A DNA stretch of 64,000 nucleotides from Dictyostelium discoideum. Lineage: Eukaryota. The translations under genes and the position numbers were made by a program. This document shows positions 8,375-14,186 of the stretch, one piece after another (the first letter of the stretch is position 1; every line of letters starts with the position of its first letter). The stretch covers positions 1,344,001-1,408,000 of the forward strand of contig CM000152.2 of assembly GCA_000004695.1 (NCBI GenBank), given 5' to 3'. Under the pieces are notes generated by a model. The model worked only from the letters and a program-made list of their open reading frames with translations, searched no databases and had not been told where the DNA came from.

Positions 8375-11300
8375 GGTAGTATTATTATTTTATTTTTACT
8401 TTTTACTTTTTACTTTTTACTTTTAACTTTTAACTTTTTACTTTTTACTTTTTACTTTTTATATAGTTTGAATTTATTTTTACTTAATTTTATTTTAAAT
8501 GGTATATTAATTTTATTTTTATTATTTTTTTTTAATTTTATGTATTCTATTTATAAATATTGATGTAGTATATTTGAAATGACACTTCATATATTTATAT
8601 ATATAATTGAAAAGAAAAAAAAAAAAAAGATTAATAAATTCAAAAATAGCTTCTTTTTTTTTTTTTTTTTTTTTAAATTTATTTGTATAATAAATAAACA
8701 TATAACTCTTGAAGTAAAAGTAATAATAAAAAAAAAAATAAAATAAAATAAAAAAAATTTTAAAAATTGAAAAAAAAAAAAAAATGAAAAAAAAAAAAAA
8801 AATAAAAAAATAAAATAAAAAAATAAAAAAATAAAATTAATTTTATTTCTTTTTTTTTTTTTTTTTTTGGAAATCTTAATATTTTTAAAAATAATAAATT
8901 ACTTTTTTTGTTAAGTGAAAATAAAAAAATAAAATAAAATAAAAAAAATTAAAATTAAAATAATTTTTTGATCAATTATTAACTATGAAATTTCATTGAA
9001 TATTAATTGAATTATAATATAATAATAATTTTGTTTTAGTTTGAGGTGTTCTAGTTTAGTGATTTTGAAAATAAACACTAAAAATTATTTTTATTATTAT
9101 TTTAATTTTATTTTTTTTCTATTTTTTTCTATTTTTAAATCAATTTAAATAAAAAATAAAAAAAAATAATAAAAAAATAAAAAAAAATTGAAAATAAAAA
9201 TTTAAAGGAATAATTTATTTTTATTTAAATTAACAATTAATATATCTAATTTTTTTGATTTTGATATTACAATGACCCAATCCCAAAACTGGCCAAATAA
9301 TTTAAACCACCCAAACCTTTTATAATTTCGGTTATTGAAAAAACAAACGCCGAATTACTTTTGTAAATTGGAAAAATCAAAAACTGATAAATTTCAAAAC
9401 AAATCTGTACTCAATTTTTTTTTTTTTTTTTTTTAATTAAAAAAAAAAGCTTGCAAACTAAAAATAGGATACTTATTCCCCTTTGGTGTGTACAAATTAA
9501 AAAAAAAAAAAAAAAAAAAAAAAAATTAAAAAAAAATATATCTTTTTTTTCTCGTTTTTTCCTTTTTTTTTTTTTTTTTTTTTTTTTTTTTTTTGGACTT
9601 TTTTTTTTTAAAATGAACCAAAATTTTTAATCAGATCTCTGATGGTCGTGAATTAGCACTAGATCAGTCATTAAGGGAAAAAAGAAAAAAAAAAAAATTG
9701 AAAAAAAAAAAAATTATTTTTCCATTACCTCTTTTTAACTATTACCATTTATTTTTTTTTTAAATATGCATATATTTTTTTTTTTTTTTTTTTTTTTTTT
9801 TATTTAAAATGTTTAAGAAAAAAAAAAAAAAAAAAAAATTTAGTAAAAGGTTTTTTTTTAGTTCAACTAAAACCATATGATAATCTAGATTGAGGAGATA
9901 AATTTATGAGAAAAAATGAGGCATATGAAAGTTTATGTTAATCATATGTGACGATTGGGTATATTGAATGGATTATTATAATTATAAAAAAAAAAAAAAA
10001 AAAAAAAATATCTTTTTTTTTCTTTGATTTGGAAAATTTTGGTTTCAACCAATAATTTTTTTTCTTTTTTTTTTTTTTTTTTTTAATTTTTGATTCAGAT
10101 TATTTGTTTAAATTAGTTATAGTAGATATTTATGCCAATTTAGAAAAAAAAAAAAAAAATATATTTTATTTGATTGATTGTTTTTATTTTTATTTATTTT
10201 TTTTTTTTTTTTTTTTTTTCCTTCATTGATAATATTTGAATAGGTTCAAAAAATAAAAAAAATCTTTTTTTTTTTTTTTTTTAAAACCCAAAAGACATCC
10301 AAAACCTATCAAAATTAATCTACTTAACGAGTTTGCTTCCAATTTTTTTTTTTTTTTTTTTTTTTTTTTGGAGATTTAAGAAATAATAGAAAACTAAAAA
10401 AAATAATAAGGAAAATAGGACAAGTGAATAATAAAAAATTCAATATTTTATTAACTAATTCAATAAAATAAAAAAGAAAAAAGAAAAAAAAAAAAAAAAA
10501 TAATAAAAAATAATAAAAATTAATTAATCAGACGAAAAAAAAAAATTTTCAGCCGCTTTGCGAGTCGACTATTTTTGTCAACTGATAAAAAAAAAAAAAA
10601 AAAAAAAAAAACGCTAAAGCTCTTTTCTAAAATTAGACTCAAACGTTTCTCTCGTCAAAAAAAAAAAATTTATTTTTATTTTTTTTTTTTTTATTTTTAT
10701 TTTTTTTTTTTATTTTTTTTTTTTTTTATTTTTTTTTATTTTTTTTTTTTTTTTTTTAAAAAACTCTCTTGTTGCAAACATAAATATAAAACAAACATAT
10801 AATTTTTTAGAAAAAACATAAGATCAAAGCAAAATTTTTTAAATAATAAAGAATAAAAAAAAAAATAATAAACAACATATCAGTCACAACAAATATATCA
10901 AGATTTCTTTTTCAAAATAATAATAAAAATAGAAAGTAAAAACAACAAAAAGGTAAAATCACACACCCACACTAGATTTTTGATTTTCATCATAAATCTC
11001 CAAAAAAAAAAAAAAAAAAAAAAAAAAAAAATTTATCTATTTTTATTATTATTTTTTTTATTTTTATTTTTATTTTTTTGTTTTGAAATAGATTTATTAG
11101 TTAACGGGTTATCGTATTCCAAAATTTTTTTTTACTTTTTTATATTTTATTTTTTTATTTTTTTTTTTTTTTTTTTTGTAAAATAAATTGTTTTCTTATT
11201 TTTATATTATTTTATTTTATTTTATTTTATTTTTTTAATGATTGATTAAAAAAAAAAAAAAGAAAAAAATAAAGTTATTGTAAAAAAAAAAAGAAAGAAA

Positions 11301-12066
11301 AAAAATCTTAGAAAATTAAAAAAAAAAAAAGATATAAAAACTTTCACACACACAACCCACACACACAAACATCTAAAACCAAGATATATAAAAATATCCG
11401 AAATGGTTTTTTATTATTGTATTTTTTTTTTTTTAAAAAAAAATTATTTTTATTTTTTTATTTTTTTTAATAATTAAAAAAAGATTATTAAAAGACAAGA
11501 ATTTCTTTAGTTGTGATTTTTTTTTTTTTTAAACACTTGGAATTAGATTTTTTTATTTTATTTTTTCATTTTATTTATTTTAATTATTATTATTTTTTTT
11601 TTTTCTTCATTACAGTTGGTAAAATAAAAATAAATAAAAAAATAAAAAAGTAAAAAAAAAGACAATACCATTGTGCTTCTTTATTTTATTTTTATTATAT
11701 ATTTATTTATTATTTTTTTTTGAATAATTTCGTGTGATTCAATCTCAAAATGATTGATCACAAAGTGCCTCATTACATTTTTTTTTTTTTTTTTCATAAA
11801 ATCACATTTTGTAAAATCGCATAAAATTTTTTTTTTTTTTTTTTTTTGCAAATTTTTTAAATGAAAAAAAAAAAAAAATCAATCACCAAGTAGTACCCTT
11901 TTCAATCACAACACAAAAAAAAAAAAAATAAAAAAAAAAAAAAAAAAAAAATTTTATATATCTTAATTTTTTTTTTAAAAAAAAATTATAAAAAAAAAAA
12001 AAAAAGTCAATGGGTATAAAAAAGAAATTTTATTCTCCAAAAAAAATAATAATTTAACAACAACAA

Positions 12067-12232
12067 CAATAATAATAATAATAATAATAATAATAATAAT
12101 AATAATAATAATAATAATAATAATAATAATAATAATAATAATAATAATAATAATAATAATAATAATAATAATAATAATAATAATAATAATAATAATAATA
12201 ATAATAATAATAATAATAATAATAATAATAAT
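12067..12232. repeat. (AAT)n microsatellite, about 55 perfect units, intergenic
   Basis: Direct read of the sequence. The poly-Leu ORF at 12007..12237 on the minus strand is just a translation of this tract. Confidence 0.95.
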
Positions 12233-14186
12233 AACAATAATATTAATAGTAATAAAATAATACTAACAACAACTTAACACAATAATAAAAATAATTAAAA
12301 AAAAAAAAAATAATAATAGTTTATTTATTTTTTGTATATTTCAAATAACTAATTAATAACAATCAAATAATTTTATTTTATTTTATTTTTTTCATCATTC
12401 TTAGAAGAGGTAAAAATAGGAGAATTGTATTCACAATATTTTTTTTATTTATTTATTTATTTTTAAAATAATTAATTTTCACAAGGCTAATTATAGAGCA
12501 ATGTAATAATTTTTTTTTTTTTTTGTGTTGCTTATTTTTTTATTATTTTTTTTTTCCAAAATTAATTCTTTTTATGTAGTGTATTTTTTAATTACTTTAT
12601 TTAATACAAAAAAAAAAACACTGAACAAAAAACACACATTGGGATGTTAATAGGTTGTTATTAACTACTAGTTCATTCAAAATTTTATCATATTTTTTTT
12701 TTTTTTTTTTTTGTGTGGGGGAAGGGTACTAATTTTCGTATATTAAAATTCAGCTTACATGTGTGTGGTATATTATTGTTTGTCTAAAAATCTATTTATA
12801 CACATACGCACAAAAAAAAAAAAAAAAAAAAAAAAAAAAAAAAAGAAAAGACACACCCTATATATATTTTAAAAATACAAAAAAAAAAATAAATAAATAA
12901 AATAAAACTACTTGAGATAAATAGCAATTAAATACAGCCAAATACTAATTAAAAAAATTCGTTATCATATAAAAATAGATCATCTTGTCTTTATTTCAAT
13001 ATAATCCCAAATTCAGCAATTTATTTTTTTTCCTAATATATAACATAACATAAAATAATAATAATAATAATAATTTAATTTATAAATTTATATAAACATA
13101 CAATAAATTTTTTTTTTTTTAAAAAAATTATGCCGCAAAAAAAAAAAAAAAAAAAAAAAAAAAAAAAAAAACATTTGATCATAAAGCATATAGTTTAAAT
13201 TATTAATAATAATAGTAATAGTAATAATAATAATAATAATATAATAAATAATAAAAAAATAATAGTAATCATACGATTCATAAATAATAATTGTAGTATA
13301 TAGAAATCATTTAATCAATAATAATAATAATAATAATAATATTTTGTATAATTTTTTAAAAATTTAAATTAATTTTTTTTTCCTTTTTTTGGTATGTATT
13401 CTATTTTTATAAATAAAAAAGAAAAATATGAAAATAATAGTTTTTTTTTTTATTTTGTTTCAAAAAAAAAAAAAAAAACAAAAAAAAAAATTATAATAAT
13501 AATTTTGGTGTTTTATAACATCATATATTATTATTATTATTTTTTATTTTCAAACATATTTATTTGTATATATGAAACCATGGTGATGATACAATTTAAA
13601 TAGTTTCTAACATTAAGTTTTTTTTTTTTTTTTATTCTCCTATCTATTTTTTAATTCTCCTATCTATTTTTTTATTTTATTTTACTTTTTCAATAATCCC
13701 TTTGTACACCACACACACTAAACATACTAAACACACCATATCACAAAATTCTAAAAATATCTTCAAATTAACTGAAATTTAATTATTTTTTTTATTTTTT
13801 ATTTAATTTTAATTTTTCAAAAAAAAAAATTCATTGGACAACTCGACTGTGTGTATGTTTTTTTTGTTATTTTTATGTTTTTTTTTCAACCCAACTCCAC
13901 CATACAATATCTAAAATATCAAACCACCAAATCATTTTAAAGTAGTTTTTTGCCCAATTAGTTAGTTATTTTTTTTCAATAATATTATAATAATAATTTT
14001 TTTATTTTGTAGAATTAAACAACAAACCACAATAACTTTTTTTTTTTTTTTTATAGTCCTTTTAAAAGTTAATAATAAATAATAAATAAATAAATAATAA
14101 TAATAATACAACACAACCATAATAAATAATATAATATAATTACCACCAACTCATAAATACATATAAATAATAATAATAATATTAAA

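Follow-up and report, generated by a model that had tools for sequence, protein, structure and literature searches.

The intergenic region between cldA and an RGS gene in Dictyostelium discoideum as a candidate extended control region

The cldA-RGS spacer and its gene content

The window analysed here is a stretch of 64,000 nucleotides from D. discoideum AX4 (chr3:1,344,001-1,408,000). It includes an unusually large spacer between two divergent genes, cldA (identified as DDB_G0278895 in PMC2906285), whose first-exon ORF begins at 8374 on the minus strand, and DDB_G0278897, an RGS gene on the plus strand. The main landmarks are:

4302-8374, minus strand: cldA (DDB_G0278895), the left flank, with Pfam domains CLU, eIF3_p135 and SH2; first exon 7001-8374
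8375-14186, no strand: the whole cldA-RGS spacer, 5,812 bp, 13.9% GC, without a gene
8388-8461, no strand: (TTTTACT)~10.7 tandem repeat adjoining the cldA ATG, expanded in AX4 only (TRF and alignment)
12068-12232, no strand: (AAT)55 microsatellite, a lineage-specific, polymorphic expansion (alignment)
14187-14840, plus strand: RGS gene DDB_G0278897, the right flank; exact protein match XP_647807.1, Pfam RGS E=2e-21

The 5.8-kb gene desert described in the initial annotation is a real spacer. It holds no ORF longer than 76 aa, none of its ORFs of at least 15 aa is intact across all six related genomes, searches of 8375-14186 found no tRNA and no Rfam match, and seven independent NCBI annotations place no gene call inside it. 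The second AX4 assembly is colinear here (5,770 bp, with 73 differing positions, mostly in homopolymer length), hence the spacer is not an assembly artefact. The range of 0.3-1.6 kb first given for the other intergenic regions of the window is about right, the next-largest being ~1.7 kb; 25.8-28.5 kb and 53.7-57.7 kb were ruled out as further large spacers, both having long ORFs inside. The GC content of the spacer is 13.9% vs 14.7% in the remaining non-coding DNA of the window, and A/T homopolymers of at least 8 nt make up 22% of it vs 16% elsewhere, including 18 runs of at least 20 nt. The (AAT)55 tract is exactly as had been claimed, and TRF reports a wider imperfect AAT array at 12045-12318. 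The number of units is 55 in AX4, 56 in the second AX4 assembly, 32+19 or 8+6+4 in D. cf. discoideum strains, and 0-4 in D. citrinum, D. firmibasis and D. dimigraforme.

The head-to-head pair, with cldA orthologues recovered by tblastn, is kept together with an oversized spacer (2.2-6.5 kb) in four distant dictyostelid genera: 2.25 kb in T. lacteum, 2.16 kb in C. fasciculata, 3.94 kb in A. subglobosum and ~6.5 kb in H. album. At the three loci with usable gene models (T. lacteum, C. fasciculata and A. subglobosum), other divergent spacers measure 60-482 bp.

Conserved non-coding modules and CA/GT-rich elements

Within the D. discoideum clade the spacer is 4.8-5.5 kb long in five related genomes. 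This carries little weight because spacer sizes are generally stable among close relatives; for instance, the spacer from the RGS gene to the next gene is 0.83-1.06 kb across them. The conservation profile, scored as invariant alignment columns in six genomes of the clade, is more uneven: the invariant fraction is 0.14 at 8850-10520, 0.41 at 10521-12044, 0.61 at 12319-13060 and 0.52 at 13561-14186, with 0.24-0.30 in other spacers and 0.58 at synonymous sites as comparators. Constraint hence increases towards the RGS gene, and conserved non-coding modules fill its nearest 3.7 kb. Along the spacer we distinguish:

8525-8625, minus strand: cldA-side conserved block, TATA-like; 58-74% invariant columns in six genomes
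8850-10520, no strand: fast-evolving AT-rich stretch; 14% invariant overall, 2% at G/C positions
9875-10024, no strand: island kept in 4/5 relatives, not D. dimigraforme; G/C-position identity 0.79-0.97 in four species (blastn)
10548-10600, no strand: conserved G+C-containing block agccgctttgcgagtcgactatttttgtca (alignment and windows)
10750-10830, no strand: conserved block ttgcaaacataaatata...aaacaaacatat; 0.70-0.76 invariant (alignment)
10940-11000, plus strand: CA-rich element cacacacccacact (10960-10973) in the conserved flank aaaaggtaaaatcacacac...cacactagatt...catcataaatctc; 0.78 invariant (alignment)
11345-11420, plus strand: variable CA tract (11345-11371), then invariant cacacaaacatct.aaaac..agatatataaaaatatc (TATA-like), then a T-run; 0.60-0.64 invariant (alignment)
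11700-12040, plus strand: series of conserved blocks split by variable A/T runs (windows and alignment)
12316-12440, plus strand: block A, highly conserved and non-coding, ending ...cttagaagag/gtaaaaataggag (alignment)
12896-13050, no strand: block C, 155 bp, non-coding with coding-level conservation; 0.83 invariant

To judge from its sequence, the block at 8525-8625 is a probable core promoter or leader of cldA. It lies at most ~250 bp from the cldA ATG, and cldA would use just the first 250-450 bp of the spacer. The region had been called the shared upstream DNA of both genes; this is true in name only, because conservation and transcription both point to the RGS gene. The stretch at 8850-10520 is mostly missing or unalignable in D. 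dimigraforme, and the non-AT islands at 9250-9370, 9440-9495 and 9600-9680 are conserved no further than the closest relatives. Further towards the RGS gene, the TATA-like ggtataaaaaagaa at 12013-12026 is kept in 6/6 genomes.

Neither of the two named blocks has coding potential: block A has no open frame common to the species, and block C has stop codons in every frame. Block C also gives no RNA fold signal (z-scores +1.05 and -0.13 for the two strands), has no second copy within the window or in distant species, and returned zero matches from metagenomes. Outside annotated genes, 60-bp windows with at least 0.8 invariant columns occur within 21 kb only in blocks A and C and in one further block on the 3' side; another such block, at 22576-22748, was set aside because the newer AX4 annotation has it as a 5' exon. 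In the six clade genomes conserved blocks extend from ~10.5 kb to the RGS ATG, but none of them could be detected in D. purpureum or in species still further away.

The CA/GT-rich elements were initially compared with G-box elements bound by GBF. Most lie where they had been placed (cacacccacact at 10962-10973, gtgtgggggaaggg at 12713-12726, and the CA-rich blocks at 13690-13760 and 13880-13935), and a CA string quoted at 11342-11366 exists at 11347-11371. The island at 12640-12800, said to be without a CA/GT element, in fact contains the very element at 12713-12726 as well as an overlooked gtgtgtgg at ~12760. KGKGKGK-type heptamers give 21 overlapping matches in the spacer vs 0.8-1.8 in dinucleotide shuffles (P<0.003). 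However, CA/GT clusters reach 1.9/kb vs 1.1/kb in the remaining non-coding DNA of the window (14.6 kb), which is not significant (P=0.12), and the elements do not set the spacer apart. Exact ACACCC sites number only two, at 10963 and 12853. Conservation of GTGTGGG at 12713 stops at the closest relative, the CA core at 10960-10973 is found in 5/6 genomes, and CA tracts differ in length between species, as microsatellites do. Upstream of the D. purpureum RGS gene CA clusters reach 4.25/kb vs 1.06/kb (P=0.03), with the same trend in other species.

Transcription and leader-like signals upstream of the RGS gene

Evidence of transcription comes from one published summary table, the meaning of whose columns we deduced by comparing two rows. 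File S7 of PMC5295588 (Rosengarten et al. 2016) lists the antisense model CUFF_2211_1 (chr3:1356246-1358595; window 12246-14595 by derived coordinate offset) with 8,722 sense vs 200 antisense reads, 8.8% of the span lacking sense reads and 47% lacking antisense reads. The 8.8% applies to the model span, since the value is 0% in the sibling row of that gene. By implication, about 90% (at least 88%) of the 1,941 bp that precede the RGS ATG are tiled by sense reads, although the coverage may be very shallow and reflect read-through or noise. The transcribed part and the signals within it are:

12246-14186, plus strand: stretch tiled by RGS-sense reads (PMC5295588 File S7)
13691-13745, plus strand: CA-rich block 1, directly 3' of a conserved TATA-like sequence and a T16 run (sequence, alignment)
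13887-13941, plus strand: CA-rich block 2 (caacccaactccaccatacaat...), directly 3' of a T-run; 0.64-0.78 invariant (alignment)
14006-14056, plus strand: two invariant acceptor-like sites, ttttgtAG/aattaaaca (AG at 14011-12) and ttttatAG/tcctttt (AG at 14055-56) (alignment)

The tiled stretch, whose left end adjoins the unmappable (AAT)55, is covered by no gene model and implies an unannotated upstream transcription unit or a long leader. In the alignments the plus strand retains TATA-like, T-run, donor-like and acceptor-like signals, among them a conserved donor-like GTATGT at 13853. Block 1 is leader-like and may be an alternative first exon. Block 2 is a probable proximal transcription start or leader, because no upstream ATG occurs between it and the RGS ATG (12 upstream ATGs are present from 12246 onwards, 0 downstream of 13887). 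Since both CA blocks fall within the transcribed stretch and each immediately follows a T-run, they look like leader rather than upstream binding sites. Splicing might use the acceptor-like sites at 14006-14056; a candidate intron at 12410-12578 has conserved blocks inside and its acceptor kept in 5/6 species. D. purpureum and P. violaceum also have the sequence TTGTAGAATT upstream of their RGS gene.

A multi-promoter reading and its alternatives

We lean towards the view that the spacer is mainly an extended, acaA-like control region of DDB_G0278897, with several promoters and a long leader. The spacer itself, its conservation profile, the deep synteny and, from a published table, the sense-read tiling are shown; promoter positions, splicing and the gene served by the modules are what we infer in the following scheme. 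Over the 3.7 kb from ~10.5 kb to the RGS ATG, conserved complex-sequence modules, each 30-155 bp long, alternate with poly(dA)/poly(dT) runs and microsatellites that are free to vary in length among species. One or more distal promoters would fire towards the RGS gene, with the conserved TATA-like sequence at 12013-12026, a short way upstream of (AAT)55, as the candidate; at least the last 1.9 kb of the 'desert' would be transcribed as a result. Proximal starts probably follow the T-runs at ~13691 and ~13887, making both CA-rich blocks leader. With its 12 upstream AUGs, the long isoform would then be spliced to a shared acceptor immediately 5' of the ATG, or be a poorly translated regulatory isoform. 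For the many conserved blocks inside the transcribed stretch, DNA-level enhancers fit equally well as exons.

The sense reads tiling 12246-14186 could also belong to a separate plus-strand lncRNA gene running from near or upstream of (AAT)55 into the RGS gene, and acting via transcription (promoter interference) or through unstructured conserved blocks rather than as an mRNA leader. The 12 upstream ATGs without a conserved ORF and the coding-level conservation of block C without coding capacity agree with this, and a transcript of this kind would have been dropped from the catalogue, whose rule allows lncRNAs no tiling path to a neighbouring gene. But it is absent from the 621 listed lncRNAs, the consecutive numbering of CUFF_2210 and CUFF_2211 indicates that no separate lncRNA model exists, and the fold signal is missing on both strands; on present data it is indistinguishable from a long leader, and we regard it as fairly unlikely. 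The opposite strand offers a very improbable candidate, in which CUFF_2211_1 (minus strand, 14595 to 12246) would be a genuine antisense RNA, initiated within the RGS coding sequence and regulating that gene. PMC5295588 File S7 models it, giving a Spearman correlation of 0.47 to the sense mRNA, but antisense reads are 2.2% of the total and leave 47% of the model uncovered, and the 8.8% sense-coverage gap exceeds the 5% strand-switch artefact filter of the authors, who consider many such antisense models artefacts.

It is quite improbable that the spacer is mostly neutral AT-rich filler, grown by homopolymer and microsatellite expansion, with transcriptional noise as the source of the upstream reads. 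The lineage-specific, polymorphic (AAT)55, (TTTTACT)n and many A/T runs, the essentially unconstrained 8850-10520 and a composition equal to that of other spacers would suit it, whereas blocks at coding-level invariance, an oversized spacer in four distant genera (vs 60-482 bp for other divergent spacers at the three loci with usable gene models), and sense reads over about 90% of 1.9 kb do not. G-box/CAE elements are bound by GBF in post-aggregative promoters, e.g. those of cotC/SP60 and cprB, and the Firtel-lab literature gives a paired half-site rule for GBF. The original proposal that the CA/GT islands are putative sites of this kind, in a post-aggregative, cAMP-induced promoter, appears unlikely. 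The heptamers far exceed shuffles (21 vs about 1-2), the sequences flanking two distal CA elements (10960, 11345) are conserved, clusters such as cacacacccacac recall these elements, and CA clusters are frequent upstream of the D. purpureum RGS gene, with a similar trend in other species. However, the clusters are not significantly denser than in other window non-coding DNA (1.9 vs 1.1/kb, P=0.12), exact ACACCC occurs only twice, GTGTGGG at 12713 is unconserved, tract lengths vary between species in microsatellite fashion, and the proximal CA blocks are within transcribed, leader-like sequence.

Yeast NDC80-LUTI and SRG1-SER3 are long undecoded isoform and promoter-interference transcripts. 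Here, too, an upstream-initiated, uAUG-rich transcript would cross the proximal promoter of a coding gene; as to repression, stage switching and chromatin effects the comparison is pure analogy. Developmental lncRNAs of D. discoideum have a median GC of 17% (PMC5295588). The spacer resembles such intergenic lncRNAs in being AT-rich, non-coding and transcribed, with 17-19% GC in its conserved parts, but its transcript fails the no-tiling-path rule and is present in that catalogue only indirectly, as the flagged antisense model.

The multi-promoter reading finds its closest counterpart in acaA: three promoters are spread over its 4-kb intergenic region, and transcripts from each begin with a separate non-coding first exon that is joined by splicing to one shared ATG exon (PMC2952602). 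Both regions are several kb long and upstream of a signalling gene (4 kb for lsm2-acaA, 5.8 kb here), transcription begins a long way 5' of the ATG, the candidate non-coding first exons of the RGS region come after T-runs and are rich in CA, and conserved acceptor-like sites are present just 5' of the ATG exon. However, the three acaA starts and their splicing were RACE-mapped and the promoters reporter-tested, whereas the RGS region is known from sequence and a read table. Tiling of the latter is also nearly continuous over 1.9 kb (~9% uncovered), and therefore suggests a leader or pre-mRNA that is long and for the most part unspliced, not short first exons followed by long introns. In general architecture, the level at which we compare them, srfB and mef2A are similar, as each is reported to have three alternative promoters in D. 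discoideum, upstream of one coding region and used in a stage- or cell-type-specific manner (PMC3819988, PMC3640940).

The size of the spacer had been read as a hint of complex regulation or an unannotated transcript, and the conserved modules, the retained oversized spacer and the sense-read tiling of 12246-14186 agree with this. The CA/GT elements are not distinctive for the region. The spacer fits a known kind of multi-promoter control region better than it fits empty DNA or an element of a new type.

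The spacer between cldA and the RGS gene

The AT-rich gap that the initial annotation described at 8375-14186 is borne out: it measures 5,812 bp with a GC content of 13.9%, and it is also outsized relative to its neighbours, as two further apparent gaps of the window hold long low-GC ORFs and the second-largest spacer is therefore ~1.7 kb. A second AX4 assembly is colinear across the region (5,770 bp, with differences mostly in homopolymer length), and the gap is therefore no artefact of assembly. The gene that ends at 8374 on the minus strand encodes CLU, eIF3_p135 and SH2 domains and is cldA, DDB_G0278895 (PMC2906285). 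At the other end, the ORF at 14187-14840 specifies 217 aa identical to XP_647807.1 / DDB_G0278897 of D. discoideum AX4, a protein with an RGS domain (E = 2e-21). This gene is listed at chr3:1358187-1358840 (PMC5295588, File S7), so that window positions correspond to chr3 positions minus 1,344,000.

Low-complexity sequence is abundant in the spacer. Runs of A or T of at least 20 nt are somewhat denser there than in the other spacers (3.1/kb vs 1.8/kb), and the conserved blocks are typically flanked by such runs, whose length varies between species. A (TTTTACT)~10.7 tandem repeat at 8388-8461, immediately before the cldA ATG, shows expansion in AX4 alone. The (AAT)55 tract reported by the initial annotation is exact (12068-12232). 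The tract is a young expansion: the other AX4 assembly has 56 units, close strains have 32+19 or 8+6+4, and three further species have 0-4.

Neither a gene nor a repeat element appears to be hidden in the spacer. It holds no ORF longer than 76 aa and no ORF of at least 15 aa that is intact in all six close genomes (AX4 and five D. discoideum-clade relatives). Seven independent annotations, covering the second AX4 assembly, D. cf. discoideum, another genome deposited as D. cf. discoideum, D. citrinum, D. firmibasis and D. dimigraforme, place no gene call in it, and the cldA-RGS gaps of distant species also lack a credible ORF. A protein-coding gene was hence rejected, since no ORF is kept across relatives and block C (12896-13050), a highly conserved segment of the spacer, has stop codons in every frame. 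ARAGORN detected no tRNA in the gap, and Rfam gave no match at the gathering threshold and a single chance match (E = 4.7) at E-values up to 5. Block C does not fold more stably than its shuffles (z = +1.05 and -0.13 on the two strands). With no family match in the gap and no distinctive fold of block C, a structured small RNA gene (tRNA, snoRNA, Class I RNA or similar) was likewise rejected. A transposon remnant or other repeat-derived DNA was discarded as well, because the repeat search of the gap returned homopolymer and microsatellite families only, a search with nhmmer profiles for further copies of 12 conserved blocks was negative across the window, and the region is colinear in the six genomes.

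Conservation within the D. discoideum clade and across Dictyostelia

Orthologous loci were taken via the RGS protein cluster, and the alignment spanned the gap, the genes on either side of it and a further 10 kb of downstream DNA. The invariant fraction, defined as the share of AX4 columns unchanged in all five relatives, differs strongly along the spacer.

Invariant fraction of AX4 columns by region
RGS coding sequence: 0.80
Third codon positions: 0.58
cldA exons: 0.65-0.72
Two ordinary spacers: 0.24-0.30
Gap 8850-10520: 0.14 (0.02 at G/C positions)
Gap 10521-12044: 0.41
(AAT)n region: 0.07
Gap 12319-13060: 0.61
Gap 13561-14186: 0.52

Outside ORFs marked as coding, conservation at the level of coding DNA (at least 0.8 in 60-bp windows) is found in four stretches in 21 kb.

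Non-ORF stretches conserved at the coding level
12316-12385: within the gap
12896-13050: block C, 155 bp, within the gap
14957-15018: on the 3' side of the RGS gene
22576-22748: Sua5 5' exon according to the newer annotation

Block C has no other copy in the window and none in the distant species, and its core gave no match in metagenomes. At positions 12936 and 12961 inside this block the AX4 reference differs from the newer AX4 assembly (GCA_054883475.1) by one extra A and one G/C change; the newer assembly matches all relatives at both positions, which probably points to errors in the reference or to strain differences, and the remaining 70-odd differences between the AX4 assemblies in the gap are mostly changes of homopolymer length. 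The 62-bp block at 14957-15018, just past the RGS stop codon, reaches the conservation of coding DNA and probably represents a 3'-UTR element. As for the fourth stretch, the start of DDB_G0278955 (Sua5/YrdC family) lies at window position 22879 in the 2016 table vs ~22586 in the newer annotation, indicating that the older model probably lacks a 5' exon.

RGS orthologues are present across Dictyostelia, and in T. lacteum, C. fasciculata, A. subglobosum and H. album the minus-strand gene upstream of the RGS gene is again cldA.

Length of the cldA-RGS spacer in distant species
T. lacteum: 2,254 bp
C. fasciculata: 2,162 bp
A. subglobosum: 3,944 bp
H. album: ~6,500 bp (estimate from tblastn, as the annotated model looks over-extended)

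Other divergent spacers at the T. lacteum, C. fasciculata and A. subglobosum loci measure 60-482 bp. In H. album an annotated 840-aa gene model covers 8.3 kb (994-9309 of the H. album sequence analysed); tblastn puts the N-terminus of cldA at ~3407, and the model therefore seems over-extended by ~6 kb into the spacer. The pair is rearranged in D. purpureum, where cldA lies 5.4 kb downstream of the RGS gene on the same strand. The draft contigs of D. purpureum and P. violaceum reach only 1.9 kb and 1.0 kb, respectively, upstream of the RGS gene, which fits a hard-to-assemble, low-complexity upstream region in these species too.

Searches of the gap blocks against the RGS upstream regions of D. 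purpureum, T. lacteum, P. violaceum, C. fasciculata, H. album and A. subglobosum (nhmmer, blastn) returned low-complexity sequence, (CAAT)n and a short TTGTAGAATT match only, and beyond (CAAT)n runs and this short match no sequence block or ORF is common to the distant gaps. In C. fasciculata, H. album and A. subglobosum the (CAAT)n microsatellites sit in the RGS leader, ~40-350 bp before the ATG; identical 19-mers between these three leaders are a product of the microsatellites and were rejected as homology. The motif TTGTAGAATT(AAA), at window 14006-14019, is invariant in the six close genomes and is also found upstream of the RGS ATG in D. purpureum (~-275) and P. violaceum (~-225). Its role may be that of a splice acceptor conserved in the 5' UTR, or that of a binding site. 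The T. lacteum Logan contig is colinear with the genome and is thus uninformative on splicing.

Transcription and candidate start sites upstream of the RGS gene

The published transcript models of Rosengarten et al. include an 'antisense' model, CUFF_2211_1, at chr3:1356246-1358595 on the minus strand, i.e. window 12246-14595 (PMC5295588, File S7). According to this summary table, which is not a coverage track, sense reads cover ~91% of the same span. A second, flagged antisense model, CUFF_2212_1 (14742-15124), overlaps the 3' end of the RGS gene; it has the same read counts but uncovered fractions of 0% and 30%, showing that the fractions refer to the span of each model. Of the 1,941 bp that precede the RGS ATG, at least 88% is hence tiled by plus-strand reads. 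As 12246 adjoins (AAT)55, where reads are not uniquely mappable, the true start may lie further upstream.

A true antisense RNA is one way to understand CUFF_2211_1, which is after all annotated on the minus strand. However, antisense reads make up 2.2% of the total, and the authors warn that antisense models are often strand-switch copies of sense RNA and apply a filter to antisense models with a sense gap >5% (PMC5295588). On the grounds of this read share and of the authors' own artefact filter, the antisense model was rejected as the main story. The initial annotation had suggested complex regulation or an unannotated non-coding transcript, and plus-strand tiling together with the conserved blocks speaks for this suggestion. 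A separate same-strand lncRNA in the gap would account for the plus-strand reads; against it, the transcribed span is contiguous with the RGS gene and absent from the lncRNA files of PMC5295588. That catalogue admits only transcripts that lie entirely between genes and have no tiling path to a neighbour (PMC5295588), a rule that would itself bar a plus-strand transcript contiguous with the RGS gene. The consecutive numbering of CUFF_2210 and CUFF_2211 further suggests that there is no other novel model to the left.

Several candidate start sites can be proposed from sequence features. The TATA-like element ggtataaaaaagaa at 12013-12026 is conserved in all six genomes, and two CA-rich blocks, 13691-13745 and 13887-13941, each directly follow a T-run. 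A T-run followed by the start is the usual arrangement at Dictyostelium start sites, and the T-run/CA-leader junctions at ~13691 and ~13887 are therefore candidates beside the TATA-like element. A leader beginning at 13887 would contain no upstream ATG before that of the RGS gene; one beginning at 12246 would contain 12. A GTATGT donor-like site at 13853 is conserved and the acceptor-like AG dinucleotides at 14011-12 and 14055-56 are invariant. The candidate intron 13853-14056 would measure 204 nt vs ~206 nt of uncovered span, an agreement that may be coincidence.

A promoter driven by G-box binding factor (GBF), with which the initial annotation had compared the CA/GT-rich elements, is a further possibility. 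All of its CA/GT strings are present, but one is shifted by 5 nt (true position 11347-11371), and its description of 12640-12800 as an island free of such elements is contradicted by its own element at 12713-12726. The gap has 21 overlapping MCMCMCM/KGKGKGK heptamer matches vs 0.8-1.8 in dinucleotide-preserving shuffles, and 11 clusters of paired KGKGKGK/MCMCMCM half-sites (e.g. 10960-10973 and 11345-11371), as a GBF promoter would have. However, merged CA/GT clusters are not significantly denser than in the other non-coding DNA of the window (1.9/kb vs 1.1/kb; binomial P = 0.12), so that the enrichment holds against shuffles but not against the surroundings. Exact ACACCC occurs twice in the gap. 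The flanks of the CA tracts at 10960 and 11345 are conserved; in the alignments the tracts themselves vary in length between species like microsatellites, and GTGTGGG at 12713 is kept no further than the closest relative. The heptamer is common throughout the non-coding DNA of the window, and the CA elements are thus real but not distinctive. Putative GBF binding would nevertheless be compatible with control of the RGS gene from this spacer, and the two are not mutually exclusive.

The spacer as a probable control region of the RGS gene

The gap is best read as an extended RGS control region that has several promoters and a long leader, while cldA would need just its proximal conserved block (8525-8625). 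In this reading the gap itself, its pattern of conservation, the deep synteny and the tiling by reads are established, whereas the start sites, the splicing and the attribution of the conserved modules to the RGS gene are inferred. Neutral filler is the remaining alternative; the head-to-head cldA/RGS pair with an oversized spacer in four distant genera suggests long-standing selection on the region. The initial annotation was right in what it observed, and its interpretation is supported in part only.

A comparable organization is known for acaA, in which three promoters are arranged along a 4-kb intergenic region and alternative non-coding first exons are used (PMC2952602). The RGS gene shares with acaA the long upstream region (5,812 bp vs 4 kb; PMC2952602) and, according to the published table, sense transcription from far upstream of the start codon. 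The conserved donor- and acceptor-like sequences of the RGS gene would be putative counterparts of the splice sites that join the non-coding first exons of acaA to a common exon with the ATG. The RGS upstream region also resembles that of srfB, a further gene of the multi-promoter type. DDB_G0278897 is named in no main text of the literature searched, nor does the locus appear in the supplements of the Hi-C paper.

A more far-reaching proposal, which we regard as unlikely, is that the spacer, kept in all major dictyostelid groups, hosts an upstream-initiated transcript, rich in uAUGs and for the most part untranslated, which passes through the proximal RGS promoter and would set RGS protein output by transcriptional interference or isoform switching, with the 155-bp ultraconserved, unstructured block C serving as its protein-binding platform. 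If true, the uAUG-rich upstream transcript would be the first switch resembling a long undecoded transcript isoform (LUTI) described in a social amoeba.

The finding concerns a single locus and leaves general concepts unchanged; its setting is a genome in which spacers average ~0.7 kb. Block C (12896-13050), the conserved non-coding block A (12316-12440), the series of blocks at 11.7-12.04 kb and both distal CA elements provide coordinates for dissecting the regulation of the RGS gene. At least 1.9 kb of upstream sequence that is transcribed is probably missing from the DDB_G0278897 model; if so, distal promoter activity would have a further example among D. discoideum genes. The spacer links an SH2 adaptor gene with an RGS gene, and the two might share regulation.
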